DNA of 48,175 nt from an uncultured Bacilli bacterium (GTDB taxonomy: Bacteria; Bacillota_I; Bacilli_A; RF39; UBA660), in contig CALVSZ010000001.1 in NCBI GenBank assembly GCA_944359705.1, positions 1-48,175 on the forward strand, written 5' to 3'. Positions 9,161-48,098 of this stretch are shown here, piece by piece. The position numbers and the translations under genes are program-made. The notes under the pieces are model-generated. The model ran no database searches and was not told the origin of the DNA. It saw only the letters and a list, made by a program, of their open reading frames with translations. Position 1 is the first letter of the stretch, and every line of letters starts with the position of its first letter.

Positions 9161-10333
9161 GTGAGAAAATTAACTATGATAATAGTATTACTATCTGTTT
9201 TCTTAATACCTATAAAAGTAGAAGCTAAATCGTTAAACGATTTTTATAATGAACTTGCTGATTTAGAAAAAAAATATGAAGAAGCAAATAGTAGTAAAAA
9301 ACTAAATGAACAACAATTAGAACAATTGGGAAAAGAAATAAATTCTATAAATGCATCTATCTTACAAGCCCAAGAAGATATTAAACAAGCAGAACAAGAT
9401 ATAGAAGATAGCAATAAAAAAATAGAAGAAAAAAAGAATGAAACTAATGAACTTATGAAATTTTTACAAATAACTAGTGGAGGTAATGTATATTTAGAGT
9501 ATTTATTTGAAGCAGAAAGTTATACAGATTTTATATATAGATATTCTATTGTAACACAAATGTCTGGTTATAATAATAAATTAATGGAAGAATTAGAAAC
9601 GTTAATAGCTGAATTAAATACTAAAAAACAAACGTTAAGTGATAAACAAAAAGACTTAGAAAGTCAAAGAAAAACTCTAAATGATAAACAAACGACATTA
9701 AGAGCAAATATTTCTGAATTAGAAGTAGAGGGAACAACTATTGAAGAAGATATTGCAGACATGAAAAAGCAAATTCAAGTATATGAAGCGCAAGGATGTT
9801 CGAGATATCAAGATATAACGACTTGTCAAGCTACAAGTGTTCCTACCGCTGATGGTTGGAATTATCCTTTATTATGGGGATGTGTTACTAGTGAATATAC
9901 AACATATCGTGAAGATTGGAATCCAGGAAGTGAACATCATGGAATAGATTTATCTTGTGTTGCTGAAGGGACTAATGTATATGCGACAGCAGAAGGAATG
10001 GTTGCTAGAGTAGTATATGGTTCTACTTGTGGTGGTAATATGGTGTATGTTTATCATAACGTAAATGGGAAAGCTTATACGTCTGTTTATATGCATCTAT
10101 TATCTATATCTGTAAGTAATGGACAAATAGTATTCCCAAGTACTGTCATTGGAAGAATGGGTGGAGGCTCAACTTCAACTGCTCATGGGGGATATGATAG
10201 ATGTACGACTGGGGCACATTTGCATTTTGGACTTGCTGAAGGGCATAATGCTTACTCATTTAATTCTTATTCCTTTAATCCAAGAAATATTTTCTATTTT
10301 CCACAAATTTATGGTGGATACTTCAGTAGATAG
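9161..10333 (+). CDS. Secreted M23 (LytM-type) peptidase with a long N-terminal coiled coil (EnvC-like architecture)
   Basis: Signal peptide (V)RKLTMIIVLLSVFLIPIKVEA, ~200 aa of heptad-rich Q/E/K sequence, then HHGIDL and GAHLHFGL (H-x3-D and H-x-H motifs). The start codon is uncertain (GTG 9161 or a nearby ATG). Confidence 0.8.
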   Translation: MRKLTMIIVLLSVFLIPIKVEAKSLNDFYNELADLEKKYEEANSSKKLNEQQLEQLGKEINSINASILQAQEDIKQAEQDIEDSNKKIEEKKNETNELMKFLQITSGGNVYLEYLFEAESYTDFIYRYSIVTQMSGYNNKLMEELETLIAELNTKKQTLSDKQKDLESQRKTLNDKQTTLRANISELEVEGTTIEEDIADMKKQIQVYEAQGCSRYQDITTCQATSVPTADGWNYPLLWGCVTSEYTTYREDWNPGSEHHGIDLSCVAEGTNVYATAEGMVARVVYGSTCGGNMVYVYHNVNGKAYTSVYMHLLSISVSNGQIVFPSTVIGRMGGGSTSTAHGGYDRCTTGAHLHFGLAEGHNAYSFNSYSFNPRNIFYFPQIYGGYFSR

Positions 10334-10353
10334 GGCAGTATATGCCCTTTTTT
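10333..10353 (+). terminator. Intrinsic terminator after the M23 peptidase gene
   Basis: GGGCA-GTATA-TGCCC followed by TTTTTT. The SD of the next gene follows directly. Confidence 0.6.
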
Positions 10354-10366
10354 AGGAGGTATATTT

Positions 10367-12676
10367 ATGTATGATGGTTTAACTAAACAAGAAGTAGAAT
10401 ATCGCATTCAAACAGGGATGGTTAATAATGAAAAAATTAAACATACAAGAAGTATAAAGTCAATTATTATGTCAAATGTTTTGACACTATTTAATTTTAT
10501 TAATATTGGATTATTAATTCTTGTTTTTACAACAGGTTATTTTGAAAATGGGTTATTTGCTATTATTATTATTATAAATACTTGTATTGCTATTGGTGGT
10601 GAAATAAAAGCTAAATACATATTAGATCATTTAAAAATAGCAACACAAGAAAAGGTAAAGGTAAAAAGAGAAGGAAAAATAATAGAGATAAACGTAGAAG
10701 AAATAGTTTTAGATGATTTACTTGTATTATCATCACAAGATCAAATTGTGGTAGATGCTGAAATTGTAAAAAGTTCTAATTTAGAAGTTGATGAATCAAT
10801 TATTACCGGTGAATCGGATCCAGTTATCAAAAGAAAAGGTGATAAATTATTATCAGGTGCTGTTATCATAAGTGGTGATGCTTTAGCAAAAGTAATATCT
10901 ATAGGTAGTAATAATTATGAAAATAAATTAATAAAAGAAGCAAGTAGTATTAAAGAAGAAGATTCTTATTTAATGAAAAGTGTTAATAAAATTTTAAAAT
11001 TAATTACAATACTAATTGTTCCGGTTGGGGTTATGCTTTTTATATCACAATACTTTTATAGCGGTCAAACTTATAGCGAAGCAATTCTAAGTACTGTTGC
11101 AGGAGTAATAGGAATGATTCCTGAGGGCTTGGTGCTCTTGACTAGCCTAGCTCTTACTGTTGGAGTAATAAAGATGGCTAAGAGAAAGGTTATTGTTCAA
11201 AAATTAAGTGGAATTGAAATGTTATCATGTGTTGATGTTTTGTGTTTAGATAAAACTGGTACTATTACTGATGGAACTATGGAAGTAATAGATATTGTAA
11301 AATTAAGTGATGATAATATAGATGACATTATGTATAATATGCTTCCTTCTAAACTTGTAAATGCCACTGATATTGCAATTTCTAATTACTTTAAGAAAGG
11401 TAATAAGTATGAAGAAGTAGACAATGTTCCTTTTTCTAGTTATCGTAAGTATAGCGCTAAAATGTTTAAAAATAAGGCTACTTATTATTTAGGCGCTATT
11501 GAATATATAACAGGAGAAAAAATAAATAAATATAGTAAGTATTTAGATAAATATATTGAAGCAGGATATAGAATAGTTAGTCTATGTAAATCAAATAAAA
11601 CATTAGATAAAGAAGTTGCTAGTGATACTAAAGTAATAGCGTTTATAATAATAAAAGATAATATTAGATTAAATGCTAAAGATACTCTTCATTATTTTAA
11701 AAGTCAAGGAGTAAGCTTAAAAATTATTTCTGGAGATAACCCTATTACAGTATCTAATATAATGAAAACCCTAGATTTTGATAATTATGATAAATACATA
11801 GAAGGAAAACAATTACCTGATGATTACCAAGAATTAAAAAAGATAGTTAATAATTATACGATTTTTGGAAGATGTACTCCTAAACAAAAACAATTAATTA
11901 TAAAAGCACTTAAAGAAACAAAAACAGTAGGAATGGTCGGTGATGGAGTAAATGATATATTAGCATTAAAAGAATCTGATTGTGCTATCGCACTAGCATC
12001 AGGAATTAGCGCCGCTAGAAGTGTATCAAAAATAGTTTTAACTACAGAAGACTTTAGTGTTTTACCATTAATTGTCGGAGAAGGAAGAAGAGTAGTTAAT
12101 AATATCGAAAGAGTAGCAAGTATGTTTTTAGTAAAAACTACTTACTCAATTCTTTTGTCAATATTAGTTATAATATTAGCTCATGAGTATCCTTTTTATC
12201 CAATTCAATTGTCTTTAATAAGTAGTTTTTGTGTAGGAGTTCCATCATTTTTCTTAGCACTAGAGCCTAATTACGATAAAGTAAGTGGTAAATTTATAAT
12301 AAATGTTTTAAGAAATGCCCTTCCAAGTGGAATATGTGTTTTTGTAAATATCTTTTTTGTAATAATGATAACTAATATATTTAAAATTAATTATAGTGAA
12401 GTAAGACTTTTGGTAGTTGTCCTTACAGGATTTATTAATTTAAGACTTTTATATAATATTTGTAAACCACTTAACCTTCAAAGGAAAATATTACTAGTGG
12501 GTTGTTCAATTGCCTTTTTTGAATTATTAATTTTATTACCAGACTTTTTTGTTGTAAATAAAATATCATTATTAAAATTAATTCCAATTATAATAATGGG
12601 GTATGCAGATACTTATGTGATATCTTTTTTAGAAGAATTATATGACCGATATATAAAAAGGAGTAGACTATGTTAA
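10367..12676 (+). CDS. Cation-translocating P-type ATPase (type II-like, HAD-IC)
   Basis: ITGESDPV (TGES), CLDKTGTITDG (DKTGT phosphorylation site), MVGDGVNDILALKESD (GDGxND) and ~10 TM segments. Confidence 0.9.
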   Translation: MYDGLTKQEVEYRIQTGMVNNEKIKHTRSIKSIIMSNVLTLFNFINIGLLILVFTTGYFENGLFAIIIIINTCIAIGGEIKAKYILDHLKIATQEKVKVKREGKIIEINVEEIVLDDLLVLSSQDQIVVDAEIVKSSNLEVDESIITGESDPVIKRKGDKLLSGAVIISGDALAKVISIGSNNYENKLIKEASSIKEEDSYLMKSVNKILKLITILIVPVGVMLFISQYFYSGQTYSEAILSTVAGVIGMIPEGLVLLTSLALTVGVIKMAKRKVIVQKLSGIEMLSCVDVLCLDKTGTITDGTMEVIDIVKLSDDNIDDIMYNMLPSKLVNATDIAISNYFKKGNKYEEVDNVPFSSYRKYSAKMFKNKATYYLGAIEYITGEKINKYSKYLDKYIEAGYRIVSLCKSNKTLDKEVASDTKVIAFIIIKDNIRLNAKDTLHYFKSQGVSLKIISGDNPITVSNIMKTLDFDNYDKYIEGKQLPDDYQELKKIVNNYTIFGRCTPKQKQLIIKALKETKTVGMVGDGVNDILALKESDCAIALASGISAARSVSKIVLTTEDFSVLPLIVGEGRRVVNNIERVASMFLVKTTYSILLSILVIILAHEYPFYPIQLSLISSFCVGVPSFFLALEPNYDKVSGKFIINVLRNALPSGICVFVNIFFVIMITNIFKINYSEVRLLVVVLTGFINLRLLYNICKPLNLQRKILLVGCSIAFFELLILLPDFFVVNKISLLKLIPIIIMGYADTYVISFLEELYDRYIKRSRLC

Positions 12677-13320
12677 AAAAAGTTAAATTAAGTTATATTT
12701 GGGTAACTGGTGTTTATATAATATTAATTATAATATTATATTTAGTTGTAGAATACAAAATAAAATATGAAGATGGTATTTTCTTTAATTATTTATACTT
12801 TTATAATTGTAATGATGAATTATGCACTACCAATAATTATGATGATATAAAAAATGATGGATTAGTTTACTCAATATATCGTTATGATTATAATGGAGAA
12901 ATCCCTACTTATGAAAAAATAAATAATCAATATCTTATTTTAAATGATAACAAAAACTATCTATATTATGATTATATAGAAGGAAAAGTGGTTAATGATT
13001 ATCAAGAATATAAAAATATAAATAATGAATATTTAATAGTAAAAAATAATGAAAAATATGGTATAATTGATATTGATAATAATAGTAAGTTAGATATTAG
13101 TTATGATTACATAGATTATATAACGGAAATATTTATTACTATAAAAAATAAAACATTAGATGTATTTAATAAAGACTTTGTAAGTATATTAGAAGATAAA
13201 ATAACATTTACAGATAATGATAAAATTGATTTTAAATTTAATGAAAATACTATAGATGTAATAATAGGAGAAAATAAATATATATATGATTTAATAAATA
13301 AGAAGATAGAAAAAGAATAA
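12670..13320 (+). CDS. Membrane-anchored hypothetical protein with WG-type beta-repeat-like segments
   Basis: The start overlaps the ATPase stop and has SD AAAGGAG. One N-terminal TM. EKYGIIDIDNNSKLDISYDYIDYI resembles KWG/WG-containing repeats. Confidence 0.55.
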   Translation: MLKKVKLSYIWVTGVYIILIIILYLVVEYKIKYEDGIFFNYLYFYNCNDELCTTNNYDDIKNDGLVYSIYRYDYNGEIPTYEKINNQYLILNDNKNYLYYDYIEGKVVNDYQEYKNINNEYLIVKNNEKYGIIDIDNNSKLDISYDYIDYITEIFITIKNKTLDVFNKDFVSILEDKITFTDNDKIDFKFNENTIDVIIGENKYIYDLINKKIEKE

Positions 13321-13334
13321 GGGATGATTTTATT

Positions 13335-14207
13335 ATGAAAGGTAAAACATTAAGAGTAATTGAACTAGAAAAGAAAATAGAAGAAAAAGAGCATATGTTA
13401 GATGTATATGCCGTGTTTAAAGATTTAAAATATGGTAATGTATATACAATATATAAAGACAATAATGATATTACTTCTGATGTTTTACATTATGCTTCAT
13501 CTCATTTTAAACAGAGTACTTTAGTAGTTTTAGATGTTAAAGAAAAAGGAAAGGTTGAAGAATTAGTTAAAGAGCTTGTATGGAATATTTTAAATAATGT
13601 AAATAGTAATGACTTTGAAATGCTTGATTTAAAAGATATCGATAGAGTAGAAATAATTGGATCTAATACATTAAAAGTTAAAGATGAAGTATTATCCACT
13701 TTAAAAAAATTATGTATTCCTAAAGTAAAACAAACTAACGATGAACAAAAAGCAAAGTCTTCAGCATGGATTCTTGCCCTAGGATTTACTATAGCAATAG
13801 GTATAGCTAGTTATTTTGTTATTACTCATAAAGAAGAATTTAAACCAGAAACTTTTAATCTTATATGTACTAAAGAATATGAAGATGATGAACTTAACGC
13901 TAAAGTTGATTATAATGACACCTTGATATTTAATACTAATTATGAATTAGTTGAAAGAAATATAATAATGCTTTACACTTTTAATAGTACAGATAGTTAT
14001 AATGAATATAAAAGATTGGGTCTTTATTATAAAATAAATCCCGTTTCTTCTAGTTCCAAAATGGAATATATAGATGATGATATAAATAATATTTTTACTA
14101 TAAAAGAAAGCGTAACGACAGAAAAAGAATATTTTGAAGCAACTGAATATAGTGAAGTTGTCGATAGGATGAATTTTAATAATTATAAATGTGTAGTAAG
14201 TGAGTGA
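13335..14207 (+). CDS. Hypothetical bitopic membrane protein
   Basis: ORF in the operon with one central TM (AWILALGFTIAIGIASYFVI). No motif recognised. Confidence 0.55.
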   Translation: MKGKTLRVIELEKKIEEKEHMLDVYAVFKDLKYGNVYTIYKDNNDITSDVLHYASSHFKQSTLVVLDVKEKGKVEELVKELVWNILNNVNSNDFEMLDLKDIDRVEIIGSNTLKVKDEVLSTLKKLCIPKVKQTNDEQKAKSSAWILALGFTIAIGIASYFVITHKEEFKPETFNLICTKEYEDDELNAKVDYNDTLIFNTNYELVERNIIMLYTFNSTDSYNEYKRLGLYYKINPVSSSSKMEYIDDDINNIFTIKESVTTEKEYFEATEYSEVVDRMNFNNYKCVVSE

Positions 14208-14212
14208 TAAAT

Positions 14213-15133
14213 ATGGAAATATATTTATTCTATGGTAATAATTATTCAATAATTGAAGATAAAATTAATAATATTATTTTAAAAAATAATATAGATGCTA
14301 ATAATGTTATTAAATATGATATGGAAAATAATTTGGATAATATTATTGAGGAATTATCTATGAATAGTTTATTCGGAGATAAGAAAGCTGTTATCGTAGA
14401 TATAACTTTTAAAAAAGAAGTAAACGATAAAAAAATAGAAGAATTTTTAGATAAAAGTAAAAATAATTCTAATATATTAATATTTAATTGTGCCAATGAA
14501 AAAATAGATACAAGAAGAAAAATATATAAAATAATTAATAAATATGGTAAGATTGAAGAATTAAATAAAAATCATGACTACGTAGTTGATTATATAAAAA
14601 AAAGTTTACAAGATAATAATAAGTCAATGGATATAAATTATTTTTTAAGTAAAGTAAATGATGATTTGGATAATATAAAAAATGAATTAGATAAATTAAT
14701 TTTATATAAAATAAATGATTCACATATTGAAAATAGTGACATAGATAATTTAGTTATACCAAATATTGAAGAAGAAATATTCGTATTATCAGATAGTGTG
14801 ATAAAAAAAGACAAAAAGAAATCAATTGAACTATATCAAAACTTTTTAAATAGAAACTATGAACCAATTTATATTATTAGCTTACTAGGAAGTCAATTTC
14901 ACTTTTTATATCAAGTAAAAAGATTATACAATCAAAATAAATCTAATGATGAAATAGCTAGTATCTTATCTGCACATCCTTATAGAGTGAAATTAACCAT
15001 TCAAAATAGTTATATCTATACGGAAGAAATTTTATTGAAGAAAATTTATGAATTAGCAAATATGGATAAGAATATTAAATTAGGCAATATTGATAAAAAT
15101 TTAGCATTGGAAATGTTTTTAGTGGAGGGATAA
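14213..15133 (+). CDS. holA: DNA polymerase III delta subunit
   Basis: The N-terminal IYLFYGNNYSIIEDKI pattern, the ~306 aa length and the helical C-terminal domain are typical of HolA. Start placed at MEIYLFYG. Confidence 0.7.
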   Translation: MEIYLFYGNNYSIIEDKINNIILKNNIDANNVIKYDMENNLDNIIEELSMNSLFGDKKAVIVDITFKKEVNDKKIEEFLDKSKNNSNILIFNCANEKIDTRRKIYKIINKYGKIEELNKNHDYVVDYIKKSLQDNNKSMDINYFLSKVNDDLDNIKNELDKLILYKINDSHIENSDIDNLVIPNIEEEIFVLSDSVIKKDKKKSIELYQNFLNRNYEPIYIISLLGSQFHFLYQVKRLYNQNKSNDEIASILSAHPYRVKLTIQNSYIYTEEILLKKIYELANMDKNIKLGNIDKNLALEMFLVEG

Positions 15134-15134
15134 A

Positions 15135-15575
15135 ATGAAGTTTAGTGAAGAAGATATTATTAATAGTGTTAGTTTAAGTAACGATAATTTACATAGTGTT
15201 ATTTTACTTAGATTATATGATGATTATCAAAAATACTTGCAAAATAGAAATTTTAATATAGAAGATATATCAATGCTTGAGATAAGAAATTCATATGATA
15301 ACATTTGTAAAAAAATAGAAGGTAATAAAACTTCCTCAGAAACTTTTTATAATAAAAATGTTGATAGTTATATTGAAAATGAGTTTTTAATTTTAAAAAA
15401 TGCTATTTCTAGTTGTGATAAAAAGGATAAAGATAAATTAGATGAAATAATTGCTTTAATAACTGAATTAGAGAGTTTATTAAAAATAAAAATTTCTTTT
15501 CCAAATGCATTAGAAAAATGTATATCAAATAAATTAAAAAAAGAAAATGTAAAAAGATATTATAAGGGGAAATAA
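15135..15575 (+). CDS. Hypothetical helical protein (cassette gene 1 of 4)
   Basis: Starts 1 nt after the holA stop, behind GGAGGG. No recognisable motif. Confidence 0.7.
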   Translation: MKFSEEDIINSVSLSNDNLHSVILLRLYDDYQKYLQNRNFNIEDISMLEIRNSYDNICKKIEGNKTSSETFYNKNVDSYIENEFLILKNAISSCDKKDKDKLDEIIALITELESLLKIKISFPNALEKCISNKLKKENVKRYYKGK

Positions 15576-15579
15576 TATT

Positions 15580-17607
15580 ATGAATGAGTTAATAATTAAG
15601 ATAAAAAAAGAATTAGAAACAAAAATTGAAGAATTAGAACAAAGACTAGATGAACTTCAAAACAAAAATTATACTTCTACTTATGATAAAGTAAATACTT
15701 TTATTAATGAGTATGAAAAACAAGGTAATTTTAATATTTCTTTATTACAATCATTTTATGATGAAGTAGATAATTCAAAATTAATGGATATAACAGAATA
15801 TCAAGACATATTAAATGCTATTTTGGAAATTAAAAGTATAAATGATAATGGTATTTTTGATAATGATATATTAAAATTAACTGAAAAATTAAAACAAATG
15901 ATATTATCATGTAAGCATATATCAAATGAGCTATTAAATAAAATAAAAAATAATGGTTATGATAAACGCGTAGTTAAAAATGATATTCTTAAATTAAGAG
16001 AAATAGCTCTATCATTAGAGTCTTTAACAACAAATAATGTAATAAGTAGTGATAGTTTAGCATTAATTTATGATTTTATTAGAGAAAGTTGTCAAGAATT
16101 AACACAAGATGAAAAAATATCATTATCTAAATATTTATGTGATAAAAATGTATCATTAATGGATTCTATTATTAAAAAAGCTGTTTTAAGGGAAAATGTG
16201 AAGAAAAAACAAGAAGAATTAGTTAAAGAACAATCACAAGTACGTGAAGAACAAAAACCCGAAGTAATAAAACCATTAAATTTTGAAGAATGGTTAAAAT
16301 CAAAGGTATCAGATAAAGAATATAACTTATATTTAAAAGCTATGGATTTGATTAATGGTAATTTTAACTCTAGTAATATGACTGATATGGTGATGAAAGT
16401 ACTTGAAAAAAGTGGAAAGAATAAACCATTAGAGGAACGATTAGCTTTGTATAAAACTTTATCAGATTATAAAAGCCAAAAGTATCTTATGATTATGGAT
16501 ATTAAAGATAATATTATAGAGGCAATGATAGCGAATTATCAAGAAGATAAACTAATTTTAGATTTATTTGCTGAGTTAGAACTTATGTTAGAAGAATATA
16601 TAAAAGTAGATAAGCAAGAACAAGAACAATTAAAAGAAAGTAAGTTTGATTATGAAAAATTATTAAAGGAATTAAACAAAAAAGAAGAATTAATGTTTTT
16701 AGGAGAATTAGATGACTTAATTCATAAAGTTGCGCTTAAAAGTGAGAAAGATAAAAGCTTTAAAGTAACGGCTAGCCAATTTGTAGAGCAATTATTATCT
16801 AAAAAAATGGATTATATTGAAAGTTTAAGAATGTATGATGAAAGTAAGAGCCTAGAAACTTTGTCATTATCAGAAGAAATATATAGAGAATTGGCTGAAC
16901 CATTTGTTCAATTACAAAAAGTATATGAAGATTATACATATTCTAATCCAAATGAAGTAAATGATTTAGAACAATTAGGTAAAGATTTTTATAACAGTGC
17001 TGATAAATTTTGTAATGTAATAGTTTTCCCTACGCCAACTTCTAGTGTAGTATCGGAAATAGAAGAAGATATTGAAAGAGATTCTAGTATAACCCAAAAA
17101 GGTAAAGGGTATGTACAAGCTCTAGATAAGTTAAGAATGATGGTATCAACTGATTATGTTTCTGAAAGTAATAAAGAAGATAATCACAGAGTAAAATCAG
17201 ATAAATATTCAAATGAATTTTTAAAAGAATTTAGAGTAAAGAATGAAAGAAATGGGGAAGTTCGTATATTTTATAGCCAATTTTCCACGACATTAGGACA
17301 AATTATATCTCATGATGGTAAATTTAATTTGGGCGTGTTATTTGTCCATGAGATAGCTTATGGAGATACTGATGGATCTAAGAAAAGCGATATTAACATA
17401 GAAGCTTTAGATAGATGTTATAAAAATAGAGATGAAATTAGAAAAATATTAGCATTATTTAACACTAAGTGGGATAAACTTAGCGAGGAAGAAAGAAGTA
17501 CGGCTCAAGCGGAAGTTAATGCATGTTTACAAAAAAATGAAAAACAATTAGGGCACTTTATTATGAAGAAAAATGAAGTTGTTGCTAAAGAAGGAGTATT
17601 ATCATGA
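15580..17607 (+). CDS. Large hypothetical coiled-coil protein (cassette gene 2), C-terminal ~150 aa possibly RelE/ParE/HigB-fold-like
   Basis: SD AGGGGA. 675 aa, rich in K/E/L heptads. The C-terminal EFRVKNERNGEVRIFYSQF...LGVLFVHEIAYGD resembles the strand pattern of RelE-superfamily modules (weak, by eye). Confidence 0.7.
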   Translation: MNELIIKIKKELETKIEELEQRLDELQNKNYTSTYDKVNTFINEYEKQGNFNISLLQSFYDEVDNSKLMDITEYQDILNAILEIKSINDNGIFDNDILKLTEKLKQMILSCKHISNELLNKIKNNGYDKRVVKNDILKLREIALSLESLTTNNVISSDSLALIYDFIRESCQELTQDEKISLSKYLCDKNVSLMDSIIKKAVLRENVKKKQEELVKEQSQVREEQKPEVIKPLNFEEWLKSKVSDKEYNLYLKAMDLINGNFNSSNMTDMVMKVLEKSGKNKPLEERLALYKTLSDYKSQKYLMIMDIKDNIIEAMIANYQEDKLILDLFAELELMLEEYIKVDKQEQEQLKESKFDYEKLLKELNKKEELMFLGELDDLIHKVALKSEKDKSFKVTASQFVEQLLSKKMDYIESLRMYDESKSLETLSLSEEIYRELAEPFVQLQKVYEDYTYSNPNEVNDLEQLGKDFYNSADKFCNVIVFPTPTSSVVSEIEEDIERDSSITQKGKGYVQALDKLRMMVSTDYVSESNKEDNHRVKSDKYSNEFLKEFRVKNERNGEVRIFYSQFSTTLGQIISHDGKFNLGVLFVHEIAYGDTDGSKKSDINIEALDRCYKNRDEIRKILALFNTKWDKLSEEERSTAQAEVNACLQKNEKQLGHFIMKKNEVVAKEGVLS

Positions 17608-19445
17608 ATGGAATTGAAAAATTAAAGAAAATAATTGAAGTACAAATTTCAAATATAAATAATACTATTAATAAATATATTCTTCTATCTTCCCTAGAAT
17701 CGTATGCTATTAAACTAGATGAAGAAAATTTATGGGATTTAACTGAAGAAGAAGCCAAATATATTATTAATAATTTAAAAAATATAAGCAAATTAACTTC
17801 TACTGAAGAAAAGTTCTTGTTAGATTTTGTAAAATTACCACCTGAAGTAAAAAAAGTAAAGAAAACATATGTTGGTTTAGATGAAAAACAATTATCAATT
17901 TTTAAAGGAATAAAAGACAAAATTTCAAGTCATAAAGAAGATAATTTGAAAAAAGATATAGATAGATTAAATAGTATATTAGCAGATTATAAAAATCTAC
18001 TTTCTAAATTAAGCGAACAAAATAATATGTTCTTAATAACGGAGACAAATATAATATCAGAGTTATTAACTCAAGAAAAAATATCACTAGAAGAGCAAAT
18101 GCAAATATTTTTAGATGTTAATAAATTAAATGAAAAAATATTTGCAAATTATGGATTAAAAGATAGTTATGAAGAAGAAGATATAGATGAAGATAGTCTT
18201 GGAATAACTAATTTATCAGAAGAAAAACTAGATGAATTATTTAAAAATTATGGAATTGTTTGGGAAAGCGTTTCTTTACTAAATAGCGAATCTAAAATTG
18301 ATAAGATAACAAAGGCTAAACTCTATTGGAAAGCTAAATTATTAAAGTATGGTGATTATGATAAGATATCTGAATTATTAGAGTTCTTAAGTGACAAAAG
18401 ACTTACTCATATTTTTGAAATGCCAGAAATATTAGTAAAAGTGTTATTATATTCTTCAGTTTCCAAAATAACAGAAGCTATTAATACTGCTGAAGAAAAT
18501 AGTCTCAATTATTTAAAGATATTCCGTGATTCACCTACATTGATGTATCCTAGTATTAAAGAGAGAAGAAGCATAAAATTACTTCCTGGTGGCGGACATG
18601 GACCTAGAAAAGAAGGAACAACTACTAGTGGATCTTTAAATAAATTTATAAATAATAGTAAATTCTTAAAAGATAATGGAATACCTGTAGATGTTGTATA
18701 TTCCAATTGTAAAGATTTCTTTACATTTAGTACTAAAACTATAGAAGAAGTATATTCCGAATTAATGCTATATGGATTTTCTTTTAGGTATCCAAATGGT
18801 GAAGTAAGAAATGGATTTAGTTGTTTAACATCATCAGATGTAATGGATAAACTGGATATTGCTATTGAAGCTGGGTGTGTATACTATTATCAAGATAATC
18901 TTTCTAAATTATTAGATAATACCCTAAACTTATATAAAGTAAAATTTGCTCGTTCAAATAATTTTAGTGGTTCAAATATTTTTAGAACATATCGTCAAAA
19001 TAATGGATATACATCAACTGCTTTAATTGGAGCCTTTAAAGAAAATAGAGAATATGGTATATCTAGTGATGATACGTTTAGTAAATATGGTGCGGTAGAT
19101 GTTTCAAAGGAATTAGATGAAAACAAATACATGTTATATAGTTCAGTAATTAATAACAGCGATAGTAATCGTATTACGGAATTAGCGTTAAATGATTTTC
19201 TAATAACCCAACTAGATGATAAATATAAAGATCAAAATAATGATTTAATTTATAATTTTGATGGAGTTATTATATCGAGAATAAAAGTACTTAGATTATA
19301 TCAAGCACTTATTAGTAATTCAAGTATAGAATATGACAAAGATTTACTTGTGTATGTAATCACTAGAAATAGTATGCTAAATATTGAAGAGATGGAAAAA
19401 ATTAGAGAGTGTTTAAAGACTATTAAATTTAAAGGGAGGTCATAA
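17604..19445 (+). CDS. Large hypothetical helical-repeat protein (cassette gene 3)
   Basis: ATGA overlap with the upstream stop, SD AGGAG. 613 aa. Repeated (F/L)LK-x-x-G-I-type helical motifs and a Gly-rich loop LPGGGHGPRKEG. No Walker or nuclease motif seen. Confidence 0.7.
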   Translation: MNGIEKLKKIIEVQISNINNTINKYILLSSLESYAIKLDEENLWDLTEEEAKYIINNLKNISKLTSTEEKFLLDFVKLPPEVKKVKKTYVGLDEKQLSIFKGIKDKISSHKEDNLKKDIDRLNSILADYKNLLSKLSEQNNMFLITETNIISELLTQEKISLEEQMQIFLDVNKLNEKIFANYGLKDSYEEEDIDEDSLGITNLSEEKLDELFKNYGIVWESVSLLNSESKIDKITKAKLYWKAKLLKYGDYDKISELLEFLSDKRLTHIFEMPEILVKVLLYSSVSKITEAINTAEENSLNYLKIFRDSPTLMYPSIKERRSIKLLPGGGHGPRKEGTTTSGSLNKFINNSKFLKDNGIPVDVVYSNCKDFFTFSTKTIEEVYSELMLYGFSFRYPNGEVRNGFSCLTSSDVMDKLDIAIEAGCVYYYQDNLSKLLDNTLNLYKVKFARSNNFSGSNIFRTYRQNNGYTSTALIGAFKENREYGISSDDTFSKYGAVDVSKELDENKYMLYSSVINNSDSNRITELALNDFLITQLDDKYKDQNNDLIYNFDGVIISRIKVLRLYQALISNSSIEYDKDLLVYVITRNSMLNIEEMEKIRECLKTIKFKGRS

Positions 19446-19447
19446 TT

Positions 19448-19750
19448 ATGATAGAAAATATGTTATTAATTGGTATTTCTGATGAATTTATTGATGAGCT
19501 AATTGATAAAATTGGTTATGACCGTGTATTAAATTTAGCTTGTAATTATGAAAAAGTAAAAAAGAATAGAGATTTATTAAAATCATTTGGAATAAAAGAT
19601 ATAGATAACTTAATGATAAAACGAAGCCATTTGTTTTTAGAAGAACCGGAAATACTTTTGAAAAAATTTTCCCAATTTAATATTCCTGTGGTAGTTGAAT
19701 TAATTAACGATGATGTAAATGTTATTGATGAAATAATTAATTACAAATAA
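19448..19750 (+). CDS. Small hypothetical helical-repeat protein (cassette gene 4)
   Basis: Starts 2 nt after the upstream stop, behind GGGAGG. LLKSFGIKDIDNLMIKRSHLFLEEPEILLKKF resembles the repeat seen in gene 3. Confidence 0.65.
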   Translation: MIENMLLIGISDEFIDELIDKIGYDRVLNLACNYEKVKKNRDLLKSFGIKDIDNLMIKRSHLFLEEPEILLKKFSQFNIPVVVELINDDVNVIDEIINYK

Positions 19751-25506: not shown

Positions 25507-25947
25507 ATGGCATTAGAATTTAGACGAGCAAATATTGATGATATAGAAGGAATTGTGGATTTGTGTAATGAATGTTTTGAAGAAAATACAGATTATAAAT
25601 ATGCAAGAGATGTTTTTCAAAAAACAATAAATGATGATAATCATATATATTTAATAGGAGTTTTAGATAGGGAGATAGTTGCACACACTAAAATTACAAT
25701 AATTCCAACAATTTTTGCAGGAATGGACACTTATGCCATTTTAAATCATGCATGTGTAAAAAGAAAATATAGAAGAAAAAATATAGCCACAAAGATGTTA
25801 ATAGAAGTCCAAAAAATAGCAAAAGAACAGGGATGCGTAGATTTGAAATTATGGTCTATGAATTTTAGAAAAGCAGCACATAAGTGTTATAAACATTTTG
25901 GATTTAAAGCAATTAATGCAAAATTTTTTAGAAAGAATATACTATAA
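25507..25947 (+). CDS. GNAT-family N-acetyltransferase
   Basis: 146 aa. Acetyl-CoA motif VKRKYRRKNIATKML and C-terminal HKCYKHFGF. Confidence 0.8.
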   Translation: MALEFRRANIDDIEGIVDLCNECFEENTDYKYARDVFQKTINDDNHIYLIGVLDREIVAHTKITIIPTIFAGMDTYAILNHACVKRKYRRKNIATKMLIEVQKIAKEQGCVDLKLWSMNFRKAAHKCYKHFGFKAINAKFFRKNIL

Positions 25948-26013: not shown

Positions 26014-26796
26014 ATGTATAATAGGGGGTGTTTTGGTATTAATAATATTTTAAAATTGAATAAAGAATTTATGAGAATAAAAAATATGGGATGGGTACGT
26101 ACTGTTGTAAATGGAAGTGCTGGCGTTGGATTAACTTTTGAGTATTTGTTAGGAAAGGAGTTTGATAATGAAGGATTACCTGATTATGAAGGAATTGAGA
26201 TTAAAGCAAGAAGATGTTATACAAAATCTTTAATTAATTTATTTAATGGGAATCCTAATAGCAAAGAGAAGGTTGCCCAATATCTGGTTAACAATTATGG
26301 TTATCCTGATTATATATATAAATCATGCAATGTTTTGTCTGCTGAAGTTGATACGTTAGAAAAAAGAAAAGCGGGAAAAAATTATAAATTTATATTAAAG
26401 GTTTTTAGAAAAGGTAGACGTGTTGGATTATGGATTTATGATTCAGATGATAATATTATGGATGGTACAACTGTTTATTGGACATTTGATTATTTAAAAG
26501 AGAAGCTTGAAACCAAGTTAAAATTACTTGCAGTTGTTGTTGCTAGTAGGAAATTTGTAGATGGAATAGAATATTTTCATTATGTAACAATTAGGTATTA
26601 CCAATTAAAAAATTTTAAAACTTTTATAAGTTTAATTGAAAAAGGTATAATATCCATATGCATAAAGATAAGTGTTTATAGACGTGGTGACAAAATAGGA
26701 ATGATTGATGATAAAGGTATTTCTTTTAGAATTAAATATGAAGATTTGGATAAGTTATTTACCAGAATAAAAATAGAAAAAGATACTTACATGTAG
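26014..26796 (+). CDS. MvaI/BcnI-family (MutH-related) PD-(D/E)xK restriction-endonuclease homologue, solitary
   Basis: GSAGVGLTFEYLLGKEFDNEGLPDYEGIEIKAR has the D-x4-E-x-K spacing (D 26182-84, E 26197-99, K 26203-05). The C-terminal block KLLAVVVA...YFHY...LIEKGIISICIKI...DKGISFRIKYEDLDKLF is colinear with my memory of BcnI/MvaI. There is no SD before the ATG. Confidence 0.65.
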   Translation: MYNRGCFGINNILKLNKEFMRIKNMGWVRTVVNGSAGVGLTFEYLLGKEFDNEGLPDYEGIEIKARRCYTKSLINLFNGNPNSKEKVAQYLVNNYGYPDYIYKSCNVLSAEVDTLEKRKAGKNYKFILKVFRKGRRVGLWIYDSDDNIMDGTTVYWTFDYLKEKLETKLKLLAVVVASRKFVDGIEYFHYVTIRYYQLKNFKTFISLIEKGIISICIKISVYRRGDKIGMIDDKGISFRIKYEDLDKLFTRIKIEKDTYM

Positions 26797-26924: not shown

Positions 26925-27001
26925 TGGTCGGGAAGACAGGATTTGAACCTGCGACCTCTACGTCCCAAGCGTAGCGCTCTACCAAGCTAAGCTACTTCCC
27001 G
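26925..27001 (-). tRNA. tRNA-Pro (anticodon UGG), CCA encoded
   Basis: The reverse complement CGGGAAGTAGCTTAGCTTGGTAGAGCGCTACGCTTGGGACGTAGAGGTCGCAGGTTCAAATCCTGTCTTCCCGACCA folds as a cloverleaf with anticodon loop CUUGGGA. Confidence 0.95.
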
Positions 27002-27005
27002 AAAA

Positions 27006-27082
27006 TGGTGGAGAATGAGGGACTCGAACCCTTGACCCTTTGCGTGCAAGGCAAATGCTCTAGCCAACTGAGCTAATTCCCC
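27006..27082 (-). tRNA. tRNA-Ala (anticodon UGC), CCA encoded
   Basis: The reverse complement is GGGGAATTAGCTCAGTTGGCTAGAGCATTTGCCTTGCACGCAAAGGGTCAAGGGTTCGAGTCCCTCATTCTCCACCA. The G3:U70 identity pair is present and the anticodon loop is CUUGCAC. Confidence 0.95.
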
Positions 27083-29728: not shown

Positions 29729-31810
29729 ATGGAAGAAAGAATAATTGATTTACTTAAACAAAATTCATCACTTAATATAATAGATATTAATGATATTTTG
29801 GGGTTAAAAGATCCGGTTGAATTTAGTAATTTACAAGAAACTTTAGATAATATGTGTGAAGATGGCATTTTATATCATAGTAATAAAGATAAATATTTAT
29901 TATTTGAAAATAGTCATTTGCTAAAAGGAAAATTACAATTAAAGTCTAGTGGTTATGGTTTTGTTTTAGATACAGGGCTTGAAAAGGATATCTATATAAA
30001 TGAAAAAGATATAAATGGCGCACTAGATGGTGATATTGTAGCAGTAGAAATTACAAATAAAAGAGATTTTGAAGGAAAAATTGTAAAAATATTAAAAAGA
30101 AATGATAAGGTTTTAGTTGGGGAAGTAGTAGTTATAGATAACAAGTTTTATGTCTCTATTGATAAGAAGGGTAATAACATATACATACCTAATGATAAAT
30201 TAAATGGTGCGGTTGAAGGACATAAAGTAGTAGTTAAAAGAGATGAAAAGAAAAGAACGATGGGAGAAATCGTTACTATAATTGGTCATAAAAATGATGT
30301 TGGTGTAGATATTTTATCGTATGTATATAAGTATGAATTTAAACCTAACTTTCCTGATGATGTTATGTTTGAAATAGATGCTATTCCTGATAGTGTATTA
30401 GAAAGTGAATTAGAGGGTAGAGTTGATTTAAGAGATAAAAAAGTATTTACGATTGATGGGGCTGATACTAAAGATATAGATGATGCTATTTATTGTTATA
30501 AAAACGAAGATAATACATATACATTAGGTGTTTGTATTGCTGATGTATCTCATTATGTAAAAATGGGAAGTAAAATTGATGTTGAAGCTTATGAAAGGGG
30601 TACTAGTGTTTATCTTGTAGATAGAGTATTACCAATGCTTCCACATAAACTTTCAAATGGAATATGTTCATTAAATCCTGAAGTGGATAGATTAGCTTTA
30701 TCTTGTATTATGAAAATTGATAATAAAGGTAATGTTATAGATTATGACATATGTGAAAGTGTTATTAGAAGTAGAAAAAAAATGACTTATGATGCTGTTA
30801 ATAGTATTTTAGAAAATAATGTAGTACCTCCAGGTTATGAAGAGTTTGTTGATGATTTAAAACTTATGAATGAATTATCTAATATTTTGAGAAAGAAAAT
30901 GGTGGCACGAGGATACATTGATTTTGATACTAAAGAAGCTAAGATATTAGTAGACGAAAATTGCCATCCATACGAAATAAAATTAAGGGAACAAAGAACT
31001 GGTGAAGAATTAATTGAAAATTTTATGATTGTCGCTAATGAAACGGTAGCGTCTTCTATCTTTTACCGAAGCGATGATGTCCCTGGAATATATCGTGTTC
31101 ATGATAAACCAAATGAAGCCAAATTACAAAGTTTTACAGAATTTTTATCAAGTCATGGATACAGCGTCGTAGGTAAAAAAAGAGGAAATATAACCGTAAA
31201 AGATTTACGAAATATTATCGATCAGATAGATGATGAGCGAGTAAAGCCAATATTAAATGAACTATTAGTTAGATCAATGGCTAAAGCAGTATATTCAAAT
31301 GAAAATATTGGGCATTTTGGATTAGGAAGTAGATGTTATAGTCATTTTACTTCACCAATTAGAAGATATCCAGATTTGGTTTTACATAGATTAGTAAAAC
31401 TTTATAATGGAAGTTATGATTATGATTTAATTGACTATTTTAAAAAAGAATTACCAATAATTTGTGAACACACCTCAGAAAGAGAAAGAGCAGCTGATTC
31501 TTGTGAACGTGATGTTGATAAAATGAAGATGGCTGAATATATGGAAGACCATATTGGAGAAGTATTTAAAGGGGTTATATCAGGTGTACAAGAATTTGGA
31601 ATATTTGTAGAACTTCCAAATACAGTTGAAGGGTTAATTAGAGTTGAAGATTTACCAGGTTATTATACATATAATGAAAAAGCAATGACTTTATTTGATA
31701 AAAAGTCAAAGCGCCGATTTGGTTTTGGTGATGATATTACTGTTAAGGTAGTAAAAGCATCTAGAGAAACGTCAACAGTGGACTTTGAATTAGTTGAAGA
31801 TAATAAATAA
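29729..31810 (+). CDS. rnr: Ribonuclease R
   Basis: FTIDGADTKDIDDAIY (RNB motif I), GIYRVHDKPN, GHFGLGSRCYSHFTSPIRRYPDLVLHR and a C-terminal S1 domain (GVISGVQEFGIFVEL). Confidence 0.95.
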   Translation: MEERIIDLLKQNSSLNIIDINDILGLKDPVEFSNLQETLDNMCEDGILYHSNKDKYLLFENSHLLKGKLQLKSSGYGFVLDTGLEKDIYINEKDINGALDGDIVAVEITNKRDFEGKIVKILKRNDKVLVGEVVVIDNKFYVSIDKKGNNIYIPNDKLNGAVEGHKVVVKRDEKKRTMGEIVTIIGHKNDVGVDILSYVYKYEFKPNFPDDVMFEIDAIPDSVLESELEGRVDLRDKKVFTIDGADTKDIDDAIYCYKNEDNTYTLGVCIADVSHYVKMGSKIDVEAYERGTSVYLVDRVLPMLPHKLSNGICSLNPEVDRLALSCIMKIDNKGNVIDYDICESVIRSRKKMTYDAVNSILENNVVPPGYEEFVDDLKLMNELSNILRKKMVARGYIDFDTKEAKILVDENCHPYEIKLREQRTGEELIENFMIVANETVASSIFYRSDDVPGIYRVHDKPNEAKLQSFTEFLSSHGYSVVGKKRGNITVKDLRNIIDQIDDERVKPILNELLVRSMAKAVYSNENIGHFGLGSRCYSHFTSPIRRYPDLVLHRLVKLYNGSYDYDLIDYFKKELPIICEHTSERERAADSCERDVDKMKMAEYMEDHIGEVFKGVISGVQEFGIFVELPNTVEGLIRVEDLPGYYTYNEKAMTLFDKKSKRRFGFGDDITVKVVKASRETSTVDFELVEDNK

Positions 31811-31830
31811 CATAAAGAGAGGACTTGTTT

Positions 31831-33960
31831 ATGGGAACTAAAATAATTGAATTATTAAGTTCCAAAAAGAATAATAATTTAACACTTGAAGAAATAAGTG
31901 TATATTTAGGGGAAGATAAGGAATACATATTTAAGGTATTAGCACTTTTGGAACAACAAGGAATTATATTTAAACAAAGTAATAATAAATATATTCTTGT
32001 TCAAAATACTAATTTAAAAAGGGCTACAATTAAATTTACTACCAAAAAAGGATTAGTAGCTATTTTAAGCGATAATACGCAATTGCAACTTACACGTAAA
32101 GATTATAAAAAATTAAGAAATAATGATTTAGTTTTAGTAGAACCATATACGCAAAGTGGCATGGCTAAAGTGGTAAGGATATTAAATAAGACTAATAAAA
32201 ATTATATTGGAGAAGTAATAGAAGAAGAAAACCAATATAAGGCAATTAGTGAAGACGGAAGAAGTATTAATTTAAAAGAAGAATATCCAATTGGTACGAA
32301 ATTATTAATAGACAGTAATACTGATATGGTACTAGAAGTAATTGGACATAAAGATGATTATAGTACTGTAATAAAAGAAGTATTACTTCAAAATGGATTT
32401 CCTATATCTTTTAAAGATGAGTATTTAAAAGAATTGGAAGCAATACCAACGTCTTTATCTGATGAAGACATAATAGATTTAAAAAGTAAGAAATATTTAG
32501 ATATTACTACATTGCCAATTATAACTGTAGATGGAGCAGATACAAAAGACTTTGATGATGCTGTAGGATATTTGGATAATAATATTTATATTTCTATTGC
32601 AAATACTTCAAGATATTTTAAAGAAGGATCATCAATATGGGATGAAGCGTTAAAAAGAGGAATATCAGTATATCCTCCGGGAACAGTCAACCCCATGCTA
32701 CATCATAAATTTTCTAATGGAATATGTTCGTTAGTTCCTGGAGAGGCTAGAAGTTCACTATCTACAAGTATTCAAATAGATAAAAATGGGAAAGTACTAT
32801 CATATAAGATATTTCCAAGTATAATAAAGAATCAGAAAAGAACTACTTATGAAGAAGTAAATGAATATTTAGAAAATGAAACTGTCATAGATGGGTATCA
32901 AAACTATTTAGATTTAATAGAAAATCTATATGAAAGAGCAATGGTAGTTAAAGATAAAATGTTAAGAGAAGGATTTTTGAATTTTTCTAGTACGGAAGTA
33001 AAATATTATTTTGAAAATGCCCAAGTTATAAAAATAGATAAAAGACATCAAGGAAAGGCAGAAGAGTTGATTGAATTTTTAATGATTTTAGATAATATGG
33101 TTATGGTTGATTATTTTATTAAAAATGAATTACCATTTATAGCTAGAAATCATGAAGAACCTAATTATGAAAAATTAAAATCTTGGAGTATGCTTCTTAG
33201 AAAAAGAAATTATAAAGCTATCGTTTCCGATAAATTAAAACCTGAAGAAATTATGCATAATAGAAAATTATATGAAGGAAATTTTGATATGGAAGTATTA
33301 GACAGAATAGCTATTAGATGCCAATCTAAAGCAAGATATAGTTCTGTTTGTGAAGGTCATTACGCTTTAGGTTCTATTCCTTATGCTACATTTACTTCGA
33401 CAATTAGAAGACTTCCTGATTTTATAAATCAAAGAATATATTTTGATTCTATTGAATATGGAAAAGATTATGCAAGAAAAAAATGGGCACCAATTGTACC
33501 TCTTTTAGCTAATATTGCAAATGATGCTGAAACTAGAGCAGAGAAAGTTGAACAAAAATTAGATGATATAAAGATGGCTGAATATATGGGACAATTTATA
33601 GGTTGTGAATATACAGGTGTTGTATCAGAAGTATCTACTTCATATATAAAAGTATTACTACCTAATATGTGTGAAGGTAAAATAAAATTATACGATAAAG
33701 AATATAGATTATGTAAAAATGGTTTCACATTATTAAATTGTGAAACAGGTGAAAATATTTTAATAGGAGACCAAATAAACGTTAAACTAAAAAAGGTTAA
33801 TAAAATAACAGGGGAAATAGAATTATTAAATAGCAAGGAGAATAAGAAGTATGAAAAAGAAAGCAGTAAAACGAAAAAGAAAGTTAAAAATAGACAGAAT
33901 AATTATAGCCATTACGGTATTGGCTATAGCAATTATCGGAATATATTTTCTAGTAAGTAG
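31831..33960 (+). CDS. Divergent RNase R/RNase II-family paralogue
   Basis: ITVDGADTKDFDDAV (motif I intact), but motif IV reads EGHYALGSIPYATFTSTIRRLPDFINQR. S1-like C-terminus with a basic tail. Start at the ATG 31831 behind AGAGAGGA. Confidence 0.85.
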   Translation: MGTKIIELLSSKKNNNLTLEEISVYLGEDKEYIFKVLALLEQQGIIFKQSNNKYILVQNTNLKRATIKFTTKKGLVAILSDNTQLQLTRKDYKKLRNNDLVLVEPYTQSGMAKVVRILNKTNKNYIGEVIEEENQYKAISEDGRSINLKEEYPIGTKLLIDSNTDMVLEVIGHKDDYSTVIKEVLLQNGFPISFKDEYLKELEAIPTSLSDEDIIDLKSKKYLDITTLPIITVDGADTKDFDDAVGYLDNNIYISIANTSRYFKEGSSIWDEALKRGISVYPPGTVNPMLHHKFSNGICSLVPGEARSSLSTSIQIDKNGKVLSYKIFPSIIKNQKRTTYEEVNEYLENETVIDGYQNYLDLIENLYERAMVVKDKMLREGFLNFSSTEVKYYFENAQVIKIDKRHQGKAEELIEFLMILDNMVMVDYFIKNELPFIARNHEEPNYEKLKSWSMLLRKRNYKAIVSDKLKPEEIMHNRKLYEGNFDMEVLDRIAIRCQSKARYSSVCEGHYALGSIPYATFTSTIRRLPDFINQRIYFDSIEYGKDYARKKWAPIVPLLANIANDAETRAEKVEQKLDDIKMAEYMGQFIGCEYTGVVSEVSTSYIKVLLPNMCEGKIKLYDKEYRLCKNGFTLLNCETGENILIGDQINVKLKKVNKITGEIELLNSKENKKYEKESSKTKKKVKNRQNNYSHYGIGYSNYRNIFSSK

Positions 33961-43977: not shown

Positions 43978-44036
43978 AATAACATAAGCTCCTTCCAAAA
44001 AAGAATAAGCACCATCAATTTTTATATTATACATTA

Positions 44037-47375: not shown

Positions 47376-47399
47376 AGAAACTTTATGTTTCTTTTTTTT
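47376..47399 (+). terminator. Intrinsic terminator after the YtxH-like gene
   Basis: AGAAAC-TTTAT-GTTTCT followed by TTTTTTT. Confidence 0.65.
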
Positions 47400-47438
47400 C
47401 ATAAATTTTATAGTATAATAATCTACGAGGTGAATAAT

Positions 47439-48098
47439 ATGGTGGATAAATATCATTTAACAAAAGATCAAAATTTATTTTTGGCAAAAAAAGTTTTGGT
47501 ATCTAATATCTACAACAGTGTAAGATTAGAAGGTATTAATACAACATATCCTGATATTAAAACTATTTTAGAAGGAGTTAATGTACCAACTTTAAAATTA
47601 GATGAAATAAATTGTATATTAAATTTAAGGGATGCCTGGAATTTTGTATTAATTAATATTGATGATGAAATAGATTTAAATTTTATTTGTAAAGTAAATC
47701 CGTTTGTTTCAAGAAACGAATCGTTAGAATGGGGAGTTTTAAGAAATGGGCGTGTTGGTATTAATGGTGTTGATTACATTCCAGATATACCTAATATGGA
47801 TGATGTAAAAAATAATATAAATGATATATTGAATGAAAATAATGCTACTACAAAAGCAATTAAATTGATGCTTTATTTAATGCGTAGTCAAATATTTTGG
47901 GACGGCAATAAGCGTACTAGTATGATAATTGCTAATAAAATCTTAATTAGTAATGGTTGTGGTGTTATTACAATAAAAGAATGTGATATAAAGGAATTTA
48001 ATACATTATTAACTGAATACTATAACACAAATAATGATGAAAAATTATGTTTGTTTTTATATGAAAAGTGTATTTTTGGTTTAGAAATTAATTCTTAG
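47439..48098 (+). CDS. Fic/Doc-family protein with a degenerate active-site motif
   Basis: Fic_N-like SVRLEGINTT near the N-terminus. The motif position reads QIFWDGNKRTSM (47889-47924), against canonical H-x-F-x-(D/E)-G-N-G-R-x-x-R and Doc H-x-F-x-D-A-N-K-R. Start at the ATG 47439 behind GAGGTG. Confidence 0.65.
   Translation: MVDKYHLTKDQNLFLAKKVLVSNIYNSVRLEGINTTYPDIKTILEGVNVPTLKLDEINCILNLRDAWNFVLINIDDEIDLNFICKVNPFVSRNESLEWGVLRNGRVGINGVDYIPDIPNMDDVKNNINDILNENNATTKAIKLMLYLMRSQIFWDGNKRTSMIIANKILISNGCGVITIKECDIKEFNTLLTEYYNTNNDEKLCLFLYEKCIFGLEINS

Follow-up and report, generated by a model that had tools for sequence, protein, structure and literature searches.

The stretch of DNA analysed here (hereafter the window) comprises 48,175 nucleotides (nt) of contig CALVSZ010000001.1 from an uncultured Bacilli bacterium (assembly GCA_944359705.1). 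Directly downstream of holA, it carries a cassette of four open reading frames (ORFs), designated g1 to g4, that is the subject of this study. The genes and signals at the locus are as follows:

10332-10348, + strand: terminator-like hairpin, the nearest one 5' of the cassette in this genome (terminator scan)
14204-15133, + strand: holA, encoding the DNA polymerase III delta subunit (TIGR01128, E 3e-63; also PF21694 and PF06144)
15124-15137, + strand: holA/g1 junction, read from the sequence
15135-15575, + strand: g1, ORF of 146 amino acids (aa)
15580-17607, + strand: g2, ORF of 675 aa
17591-17607, + strand: g2/g3 junction with a Shine-Dalgarno (SD) sequence and a stop/start overlap, read from the sequence
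17604-19445, + strand: g3, ORF of 613 aa
19448-19750, + strand: g4, ORF of 100 aa
19755-19793, + strand: intrinsic terminator ending the transcription unit (-13.8 kcal/mol, z = -4.2, followed by a U-run)

The coordinates of the four ORFs and their spacing (1, 4, -4 and 2 nt for holA-g1, g1-g2, g2-g3 and g3-g4, respectively) are exactly those given in a first-pass annotation of this DNA, which also named the upstream gene correctly as holA. Direct reading of the junctions confirmed the SD sequence proposed ahead of each cassette gene. At the holA/g1 junction, GGAGGG (15124-15129) precedes the holA stop codon TAA (15131-15133), and a single base separates this codon from the g1 ATG at 15135. AAGGGGA is located 9 nt ahead of the g2 ATG, AGGAG 8 nt ahead of the g3 ATG (which overlaps the g2 stop codon as ATGA) and GGGAGG 8 nt ahead of the g4 ATG. 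The four cassette genes are translationally coupled. They are real genes, as had been supposed: the ratio of nonsynonymous to synonymous divergence (dN/dS) is ~0.05-0.37 in unsaturated species pairs, with all four under purifying selection, and homologs of each are found in many genomes.

A terminator scan detected no terminator-like hairpin inside the cassette, in agreement with the earlier statement that none precedes ~19755; the hairpin that follows g4 is strong, with 0 of 200 shuffles folding as well as the native sequence. Eight genes are packed between 10367 and 19750 (a P-type ATPase, ORFs of 216 aa and 290 aa, holA and g1-g4), with spacings of -7, 14, -4, 1, 4, -4 and 2 nt. The holA start codon is a GTG overlapping the preceding stop by 4 nt. 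Because the spacing is tight and the nearest upstream terminator-like site is that at 10332-10348, these eight genes are probably a single transcription unit in the window species. The 216-aa and 290-aa ORFs (12670-13320 and 13335-14207), which lie between the P-type ATPase and holA, have no Pfam match and are probably co-transcribed with holA and the cassette.

Cassette synteny was assessed by iterative hidden Markov model (HMM) searches over the ORFs of the window and of 24 fetched loci. Across divergent genomes, the four genes occur as a conserved set, as would be expected of the multi-subunit module proposed in the first-pass annotation. In 23 of these 25 sequences, g4 lies directly 3' of g3. 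In clade A, g1 and g2 are recognisable by sequence, with the g1 homologs directly upstream of g2; clade B has positional equivalents of 147-175 aa (g1) and 640-706 aa (g2). The g2 proteins of the two clades match over their full length in hhalign (probability 99.1%; reversed-sequence null ≤0.2%), and the g1 proteins match with a probability of 89.6% (reversed null 0.1%). Clade C cassettes keep g3 and g4 and encode an 80-aa protein and a g2-like protein of ~490 aa that has no C-terminal domain; the latter matches clade B g2 and the g3 N-terminal domain with probabilities of 88.8-96.7% (reversed nulls ≤0.2%). Gene gaps in the other cassette loci are tight and similar to those of the window.

The first-pass annotation had regarded the cassette as fused to the holA operon, and this association proved to be a local one. 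Among the loci checked, holA adjoins the cassette only in the window and in locus L001 (84% identical); elsewhere, the cassette sits by various other housekeeping genes and mostly has its own terminator and promoter. These neighbours include ftsA-ftsZ upstream with rpsO-pnp downstream (the clade C cassette follows ftsA-ftsZ), a murA-like gene upstream with rpiB-spoIID downstream (clade B1, in which spoIID is two genes downstream), genes for an AAA+ protein and an HD-domain protein, tgt, prsW and an aminoacyl-tRNA synthetase gene. At L002:7710-11523, two genes come after the cassette: one encodes a 488-aa protein containing sigma-70 regions 2 and 4, the other a possibly PriA-like ResIII/Helicase_C helicase of 781 aa. 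A neighbour analysis for guilt by association identified no flanking family that recurs across clades.

In at least six independent lineages, the gene upstream of the cassette ends in a hairpin and T-run. A promoter (TTTACT or TTGAAT, a 17-nt spacing and TGnTA(T/G/C)AAT) of the sigma-A extended -10 type ends 22-27 nt before the g1 start in at least six lineages, and most species checked have such a promoter ahead of the cassette. A crude scan upstream of g1 found no sporulation-sigma pattern (sigE-, sigK-, sigF- or sigG-like). Because other lineages have their own terminator and promoter, the placement of the cassette behind holA is a species-level rearrangement; it is incidental, and holA is outside the conserved unit. 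In the window species, this local rearrangement would have removed the cassette's own promoter and would imply no functional tie to the clamp loader.

A word-indexed search returned only 9 and 4 matches, suggesting a tiny family. An exhaustive profile search of 1.84 billion representatives placed 386 clusters (50% identity) in the g3 family at E ≤ 1e-3, of which 245 remain at E ≤ 1e-10; the length of nearly every member is 560-630 aa. A scan of species-representative genomes recovered 21 loci in 21 different metagenome-assembled genomes (MAGs), one locus per genome, so that the cassette is present in at least 21 species-level MAGs. These MAGs are labelled uncultured Bacilli, Tenericutes or Clostridiales and originate from human, rabbit and rumen gut samples. 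The carrier lineage, as inferred from the labels, is probably of the RF39 type (the RF39/RFN20/ML615J-28 group), since the MAG labels, the GC content of the window (~25%) and the wall-related genes in the window all fit this group. Its members are fast-evolving relatives of Mycoplasmatales that are mostly walled and possibly sporulating (PMC10868615). RF39-type Bacilli are uncultured, have reduced genomes and are widespread in human and animal guts, and RF39 is predicted to have kept its peptidoglycan wall together with a sporulation programme in modified form (PMC10868615). PLSDB plasmids, INPHARED phages and IMG/VR contain no member of the cassette family.

The proteins were first described as unrecognisable, and this description holds for both single sequences and family profiles. 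Single-sequence scans of g1-g4 against Pfam, NCBIfam, PADLOC and PHROGs gave nothing above noise. Profiles of g3 (8 and 51 sequences) had no match among PDB sequences or in Pfam, and a g1 profile (9 sequences) had none in Pfam or PDB; neither the full-length and C-terminal profiles of g2 nor the g4 profile (16 sequences) matched any family. The AlphaFold model of g3 is mostly helical, with a predicted local distance difference test score (pLDDT) of 75.5 (~90 in the repeat region) and a predicted template modelling score (pTM) of 0.41. Foldseek searches of PDB and BFVD with this model produced no match with E < 0.6; among its 41 PDB matches at E ≤ 10, the best are TAL-effector solenoids, which are non-significant (E 0.66-2). 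A regular-expression scan of the cassette proteins for Walker A/B, HEPN, HNH, PD-ExK, Fic and CxxC motifs was negative, consistent with the earlier remark that no catalytic signature is visible. No names for the g1-g4 proteins were found in public sources. The four families are outside every library queried, and the cassette is not assignable to any known kind. Unannotated conserved operons are common in uncultured lineages, and the novelty of this cassette is its unclassifiability, not a demonstrated mechanism.

None of the four proteins has a transmembrane segment or a signal peptide, and the GC content at third codon positions (GC3) of their genes matches that of neighbouring genes. The isoelectric points (pI) in the window are 6.6 (g1), 5.0 (g2), 5.3 (g3) and 4.7 (g4); across the families they are 4.8-8.9 for g1, 5.0-5.6 for g2, 4.0-5.4 for g4 and a median of 5.4 for g3. 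The following domains and motifs can be delimited in g2 and g3:

15580-16155, + strand: g2 N-terminal domain, ~aa 1-192, homologous to the g3 N-terminal domain
16987-17604, + strand: g2 C-terminal domain, aa 470-675, better conserved than the rest of g2 (alignments A2 and A3)
18186-18923, + strand: g3 helical-repeat region, aa 195-440, in which (L/F)xx(Y/F)G(I/F) motifs recur
18633-18767, + strand: g3 module homologous to g4, aa 344-388 (hhalign segment comparison)
18855-18905, + strand: g3 motif D418-x-x-I-E422 ... Y428 ... N432-x-S434 (conservation in 136 members)
19176-19433, + strand: g3 C-terminal module, aa 525-610, Y550-N-F-x-G-V-x-I-S558-R-x-K561-V-L-R564 (conservation and duplication)

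The g2 protein starts with an N-terminal domain common to g3 and ends in a C-terminal domain of ~200 aa; the part in between is poorly conserved. Residues 1-178 of g3 are collinear with residues 2-192 of g2 (hhalign 85.9%; reversed null 0.1%), and the clade C 490-aa protein aligns with the same g3 region (96.7%; reversed null 0.1%). Because the alignment is collinear over ~180 residues, g2 and g3 are partial paralogs through this N-terminal domain. The earlier description of g2 as mostly coiled coil could not be upheld: in a crude test, its heptad-like fraction is 0.33, which is not above that of globular holA (0.36; shuffles 0.21 ± 0.08; tropomyosin control 1.00). The combined E and K content is 24% for g2 and 20% for holA. 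An SMC/coiled-coil ATPase complex was considered as a candidate and rejected on the basis of this heptad signal and the lack of Walker A/B motifs.

The helical repeat that the first-pass annotation had seen in both g3 and g4 is well supported. Residues 30-70 of g4 align with residues 344-388 of g3 with an hhalign probability of ~95%, against 0.4% for the reversed-sequence null. A weaker repeat, also linked to g4, relates g3 residues 270-320 to 340-392 (83.9%), and overall the repeat modules within g3 and between g3 and g4 score 73-95%, with reversed nulls of ≤2.7%. By these alignments, g4 is a free-standing copy of the helical repeat module within g3. It is acidic, helical and the most conserved member of the cassette.

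These repeats had been likened to mTERF proteins, and they raise the question of whether the g3/g4 superhelix wraps DNA or RNA as in mTERF, TALE or pentatricopeptide repeat (PPR) proteins. Such a complex could act in replication, transcription termination or RNA processing, with S558, K561 and R564 of g3 contacting phosphates. Both g3 and g4 are built of two-helix modules of ~35-45 aa with a recurring Lxx(Y/F)G(I/F) motif, as in mTERF/TALE alpha-solenoids; however, tandem helical repeats (~30 aa in mTERF proteins) are common to many solenoid families and are not diagnostic. The TAL-effector solenoids at the head of the non-significant g3 Foldseek matches favour this idea, as do faint HHH_RecD2 matches in 3 of 16 g4 members (best E 4.5e-4), the invariant S-R-x-K-x-x-R at a helix start and the nucleic-acid-related neighbours of some clades (holA; the ResIII/Helicase_C helicase and sigma factor; rpsO-pnp), although neighbours are inconsistent across clades. 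The likeness to mTERF is not borne out by direct comparison: PF02536 (mTERF) matched none of 16 g4 members at E ≤ 10 and none of 51 g3 members at E ≤ 0.1, neither the PDB profile searches nor the 41 Foldseek matches of the g3 model include an mTERF chain, and a literature search found no precedent for a bacterial mTERF-like protein. The sequence, profile and fold searches gave no significant match to TALE solenoids either. Typical nucleic acid binders are basic, whereas g2, g3 and g4 are acidic. In addition, unlike mTERF/TALE solenoids, g3 has a C-terminal module that is not a repeat and carries invariant polar residues, and its N-terminal domain is common to g2. We therefore regard a nucleic-acid-binding repeat complex as unlikely.

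Residue conservation in g3 was determined from 136 family members, down to ~19% identity, and is highest in the C-terminal half and lowest at the N-terminus. Near-invariant positions are G343 (96%), N351 (90%), Y390 (99%), D418 (99%), E422 (100%) and Y428 (97%), followed in the C-terminal module by Y550 (99%), S558 (100%), K561 (100%) and R564 (97%). The S558-R-x-K561-x-x-R564 motif is placed at a helix start in the g3 model. Since these polar residues are invariant over a fast-evolving background, their conservation points to a binding or catalytic site. The C-terminal module is a discrete domain that is tandemly duplicated in P0050, P0061, P0085, P0131 and P0133 (680-746 aa); the second copy has lost the equivalents of K561 and R564. 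We also considered whether members of 673-746 aa are natural g3-g4 fusions and rejected this, the extra part being a duplicate of g3's own C-terminal module. An assignment of S558/K561 as the SxxK motif of a penicillin-binding protein (PBP) was likewise rejected: the motif is ~55 residues from the C-terminus in a mostly helical protein, with no room for the SxN and KTG motifs.

The C-terminal domain of g2 had been compared with RelE/ParE/HigB (Gp49) toxins, and the cassette might accordingly be a conflict system (anti-phage or toxin-antitoxin) in which a RelE/ParE/HigB-fold toxin is restrained by the other subunits. F483 and R562 are invariant in nine sequences of this domain, which has the motif RxGxxRxFY. 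The local likeness to the toxins consists of an RxGxxRIFY-type motif followed by a hydrophobic strand and a K/S/D-rich segment. An AlphaFold model of the domain has the order beta, alpha, alpha, beta, beta, then helices, which is compatible with the RelE fold; however, the model is of low confidence (pLDDT 39.8), so that its topology is not evidence, and Foldseek found no match with E < 0.3 and no toxin among the matches. Neither Pfam nor PDB gives the resemblance statistical support. No RelE, ParE, HigB or Gp49 match was found in Pfam at E ≤ 10 for nine g2 C-terminal members, a single-sequence Pfam scan of g2 at E ≤ 1 found no toxin family, and the nine-sequence C-terminal profile retrieved only 4 unrelated PDB chains at E ≤ 10. 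In hhalign comparisons of the domain with RelE, YoeB, HigB and ParE sequences, the positive controls failed too. The setting also differs from that of these toxins: the domain occupies the C-terminal third of a 675-aa protein, the operon has four genes, the cassette has no antitoxin-like partner and no two-gene toxin-antitoxin architecture, and clade C lacks the domain yet retains g3 and g4.

A broader defence role fares no better. None of the four proteins matches a PADLOC defence HMM at E ≤ 1. All four are unrecognisable, as are the products of many new defence systems, but the flanking genes have housekeeping functions, with neither mobile elements nor defence islands nearby, no family member occurs in the phage, plasmid or viral collections, and the promoter is of a constitutive sigma-A type. 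The rapid evolution of the cassette, which would suit a conflict system, takes a form that resembles vertical inheritance. Between species whose FtsZ and PNPase are 91-99% identical, identity falls to 38-51% for g3, 30-42% for g2-like proteins and 58-66% for g4; the corresponding values in clade B1 are 94-99% for the flanks and 71-98% for the cassette proteins. The cassette proteins thus evolve ~4-12x faster than the products of flanking genes, with their motifs kept. At the nucleotide level, the cassette forms a trough of ~60% identity between flanks of 92-98%. Nonsynonymous divergence (pN) in the cassette is 8-12x that of the flanks (FtsZ, PNPase), whereas synonymous divergence (pS) is equally saturated in cassette and flanks in most pairs (~0.5-0.65), and dN/dS is < 1 throughout the cassette.

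Because purifying selection is accompanied by equal synonymous saturation in cassette and flanks, the divergence pattern is read as vertical descent under weak constraint, with no allele swapping or demonstrable positive selection. For the same reason, we reject the view that the trough originated by replacement of alleles or by diversifying selection. The closest pair of loci has a mosaic profile (L012:5125-14377 and L020:5026-14394), with pS values of 0.115 for pnp, 0.28 for ftsZ, 0.48 for ftsA, 0.42 for rpsO and 0.54-0.63 for the cassette; these values suggest that pnp and ftsZ were recently recombined or homogenised between the two species, and the anomaly lies in those genes. Taken together, these results make a conflict system very improbable.

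A gene order of small helical, large and small acidic proteins prompted the idea of an LXG polymorphic toxin locus of the type VII secretion system (T7SS). It was rejected, as there is no LXG match and the conservation is reversed, the C-terminal half of g3 being most conserved. A link to Cas1 arose from P0006, in which g3 residues 1-244 are joined to the C-terminal half of Cas1, followed by Cas2; this is a metagenome assembly chimera. At L001:3800-5280 (ENA ERZ16268270 scaffold_17267), identity to the window stops at 4529, and the GC content changes from 23.7% to 37.5%. Of the 28 window ORFs compared with Pfam, none has a cas domain, and P0006 could seed a false 'Cas1-associated' annotation. 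Finally, P0161 (from a 991-bp ENA contig) combines an Apt-like (adenine phosphoribosyltransferase) N-terminus with a clade B g2 C-terminal domain and is probably a short-contig chimera.

We propose, with about an even chance of being right, that the cassette is an autonomous, vertically inherited operon that is restricted to uncultured Bacilli of low GC content living in association with hosts, probably of the RF39 type, and encodes one soluble, acidic hetero-oligomeric complex of paralogous helical parts. In such a complex, g2 and g3 would pair via their homologous N-terminal domains, and g4, perhaps with g1, would bind to the g3 repeat array or lengthen it. A functional site may be formed by the invariant residues in the C-terminal half of g3, as a pocket that either binds a ligand or phosphate or is catalytic. 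The complex would be made constitutively in growing cells and would serve a lineage-specific housekeeping process. Our leading guess is a cell-cycle or envelope-linked scaffold or adaptor role, prompted by the neighbours ftsA-ftsZ, murA/spoIID and holA in different clades.

Several points weigh against this proposal. All profile and fold searches were negative, so any functional label is inference; the cell-cycle/envelope hint rests on neighbours that vary by clade, each representing about one evolutionary event. The fast evolution seen here (dN/dS up to ~0.35, with the elevated pN described above) would be usual for conflict systems as well. No natural g3-g4 fusion was found, and the invariant polar residues of g3 might instead be a buried structural network.

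In a different reading, the cassette encodes a sporulation or envelope-morphogenesis assembly, such as spore-coat-like scaffold proteins. RF39 is predicted to retain both a wall and a sporulation programme (PMC10868615). The cassette proteins are acidic and fast-evolving, spoIID is nearby in clade B1, and the clade C cassette follows ftsA-ftsZ. In Bacillus, this position holds spoIIGA-sigE-sigG, and spore-coat-type scaffold proteins are often acidic, lineage-specific and fast-evolving. However, the promoters are canonical sigma-A extended -10 promoters with no sporulation-sigma consensus in the crude scan, the four proteins lack signal peptides and transmembrane segments, and the neighbours differ between clades. 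We consider this assembly quite improbable.

For a complex of paralogous helical parts, the DnaD/DnaB pair of Bacillota and RicA/RicF/RicT can serve as analogies only. Like these, the cassette encodes lineage-restricted helical subunits that share domains, with small and large proteins in an operon under a housekeeping-type promoter; unlike them, its proteins have no CxxC motif that could supply Fe-S ligands, and no homology to either system was detected. A bolder version of the proposal, possible though doubtful, is that the cassette encodes an undescribed four-subunit cytoplasmic machine typical of an order-level lineage of gut Bacilli, with new folds and a new catalytic or ligand site. It would have an essential cell-cycle, envelope or nucleic-acid role that other Bacillota fill differently, and its new folds would be the helical-repeat module and the 'YNFxGVxISRxKVLR' domain.

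Given its retention in hundreds of species-level clusters, its housekeeping-type promoter and the lack of a match in any family or fold library, the operon probably represents lineage-specific core biology. The four protein families that it adds are new, their domain boundaries are clear and their invariant residues are few; labelling the cassette a holA-linked, toxin-antitoxin, mTERF or defence module should be avoided.

Other features of the window lie downstream of the cassette. An MvaI/BcnI-family restriction endonuclease is encoded at 26014-26796, and no adjoining methyltransferase was identified; the gene lies between that of a GNAT acetyltransferase (25507-25947) and those of tRNA-Pro and tRNA-Ala, which are on the - strand (26925-27082). 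Two RNB-domain (RNase R/II-like) genes are arranged in tandem at 29729-31810 and 31825-33960. The first also has OB, CSD and S1 domains, and the second has an RNB match only. A 440-aa protein with an HTH_38 domain, read as an IS30-like transposase, is encoded on the - strand at 42712-44034; the only place in the window where the GC skew clearly reverses locally (43001-44000) coincides with this gene. The gene for a Fic-domain protein is at 47385-48098.

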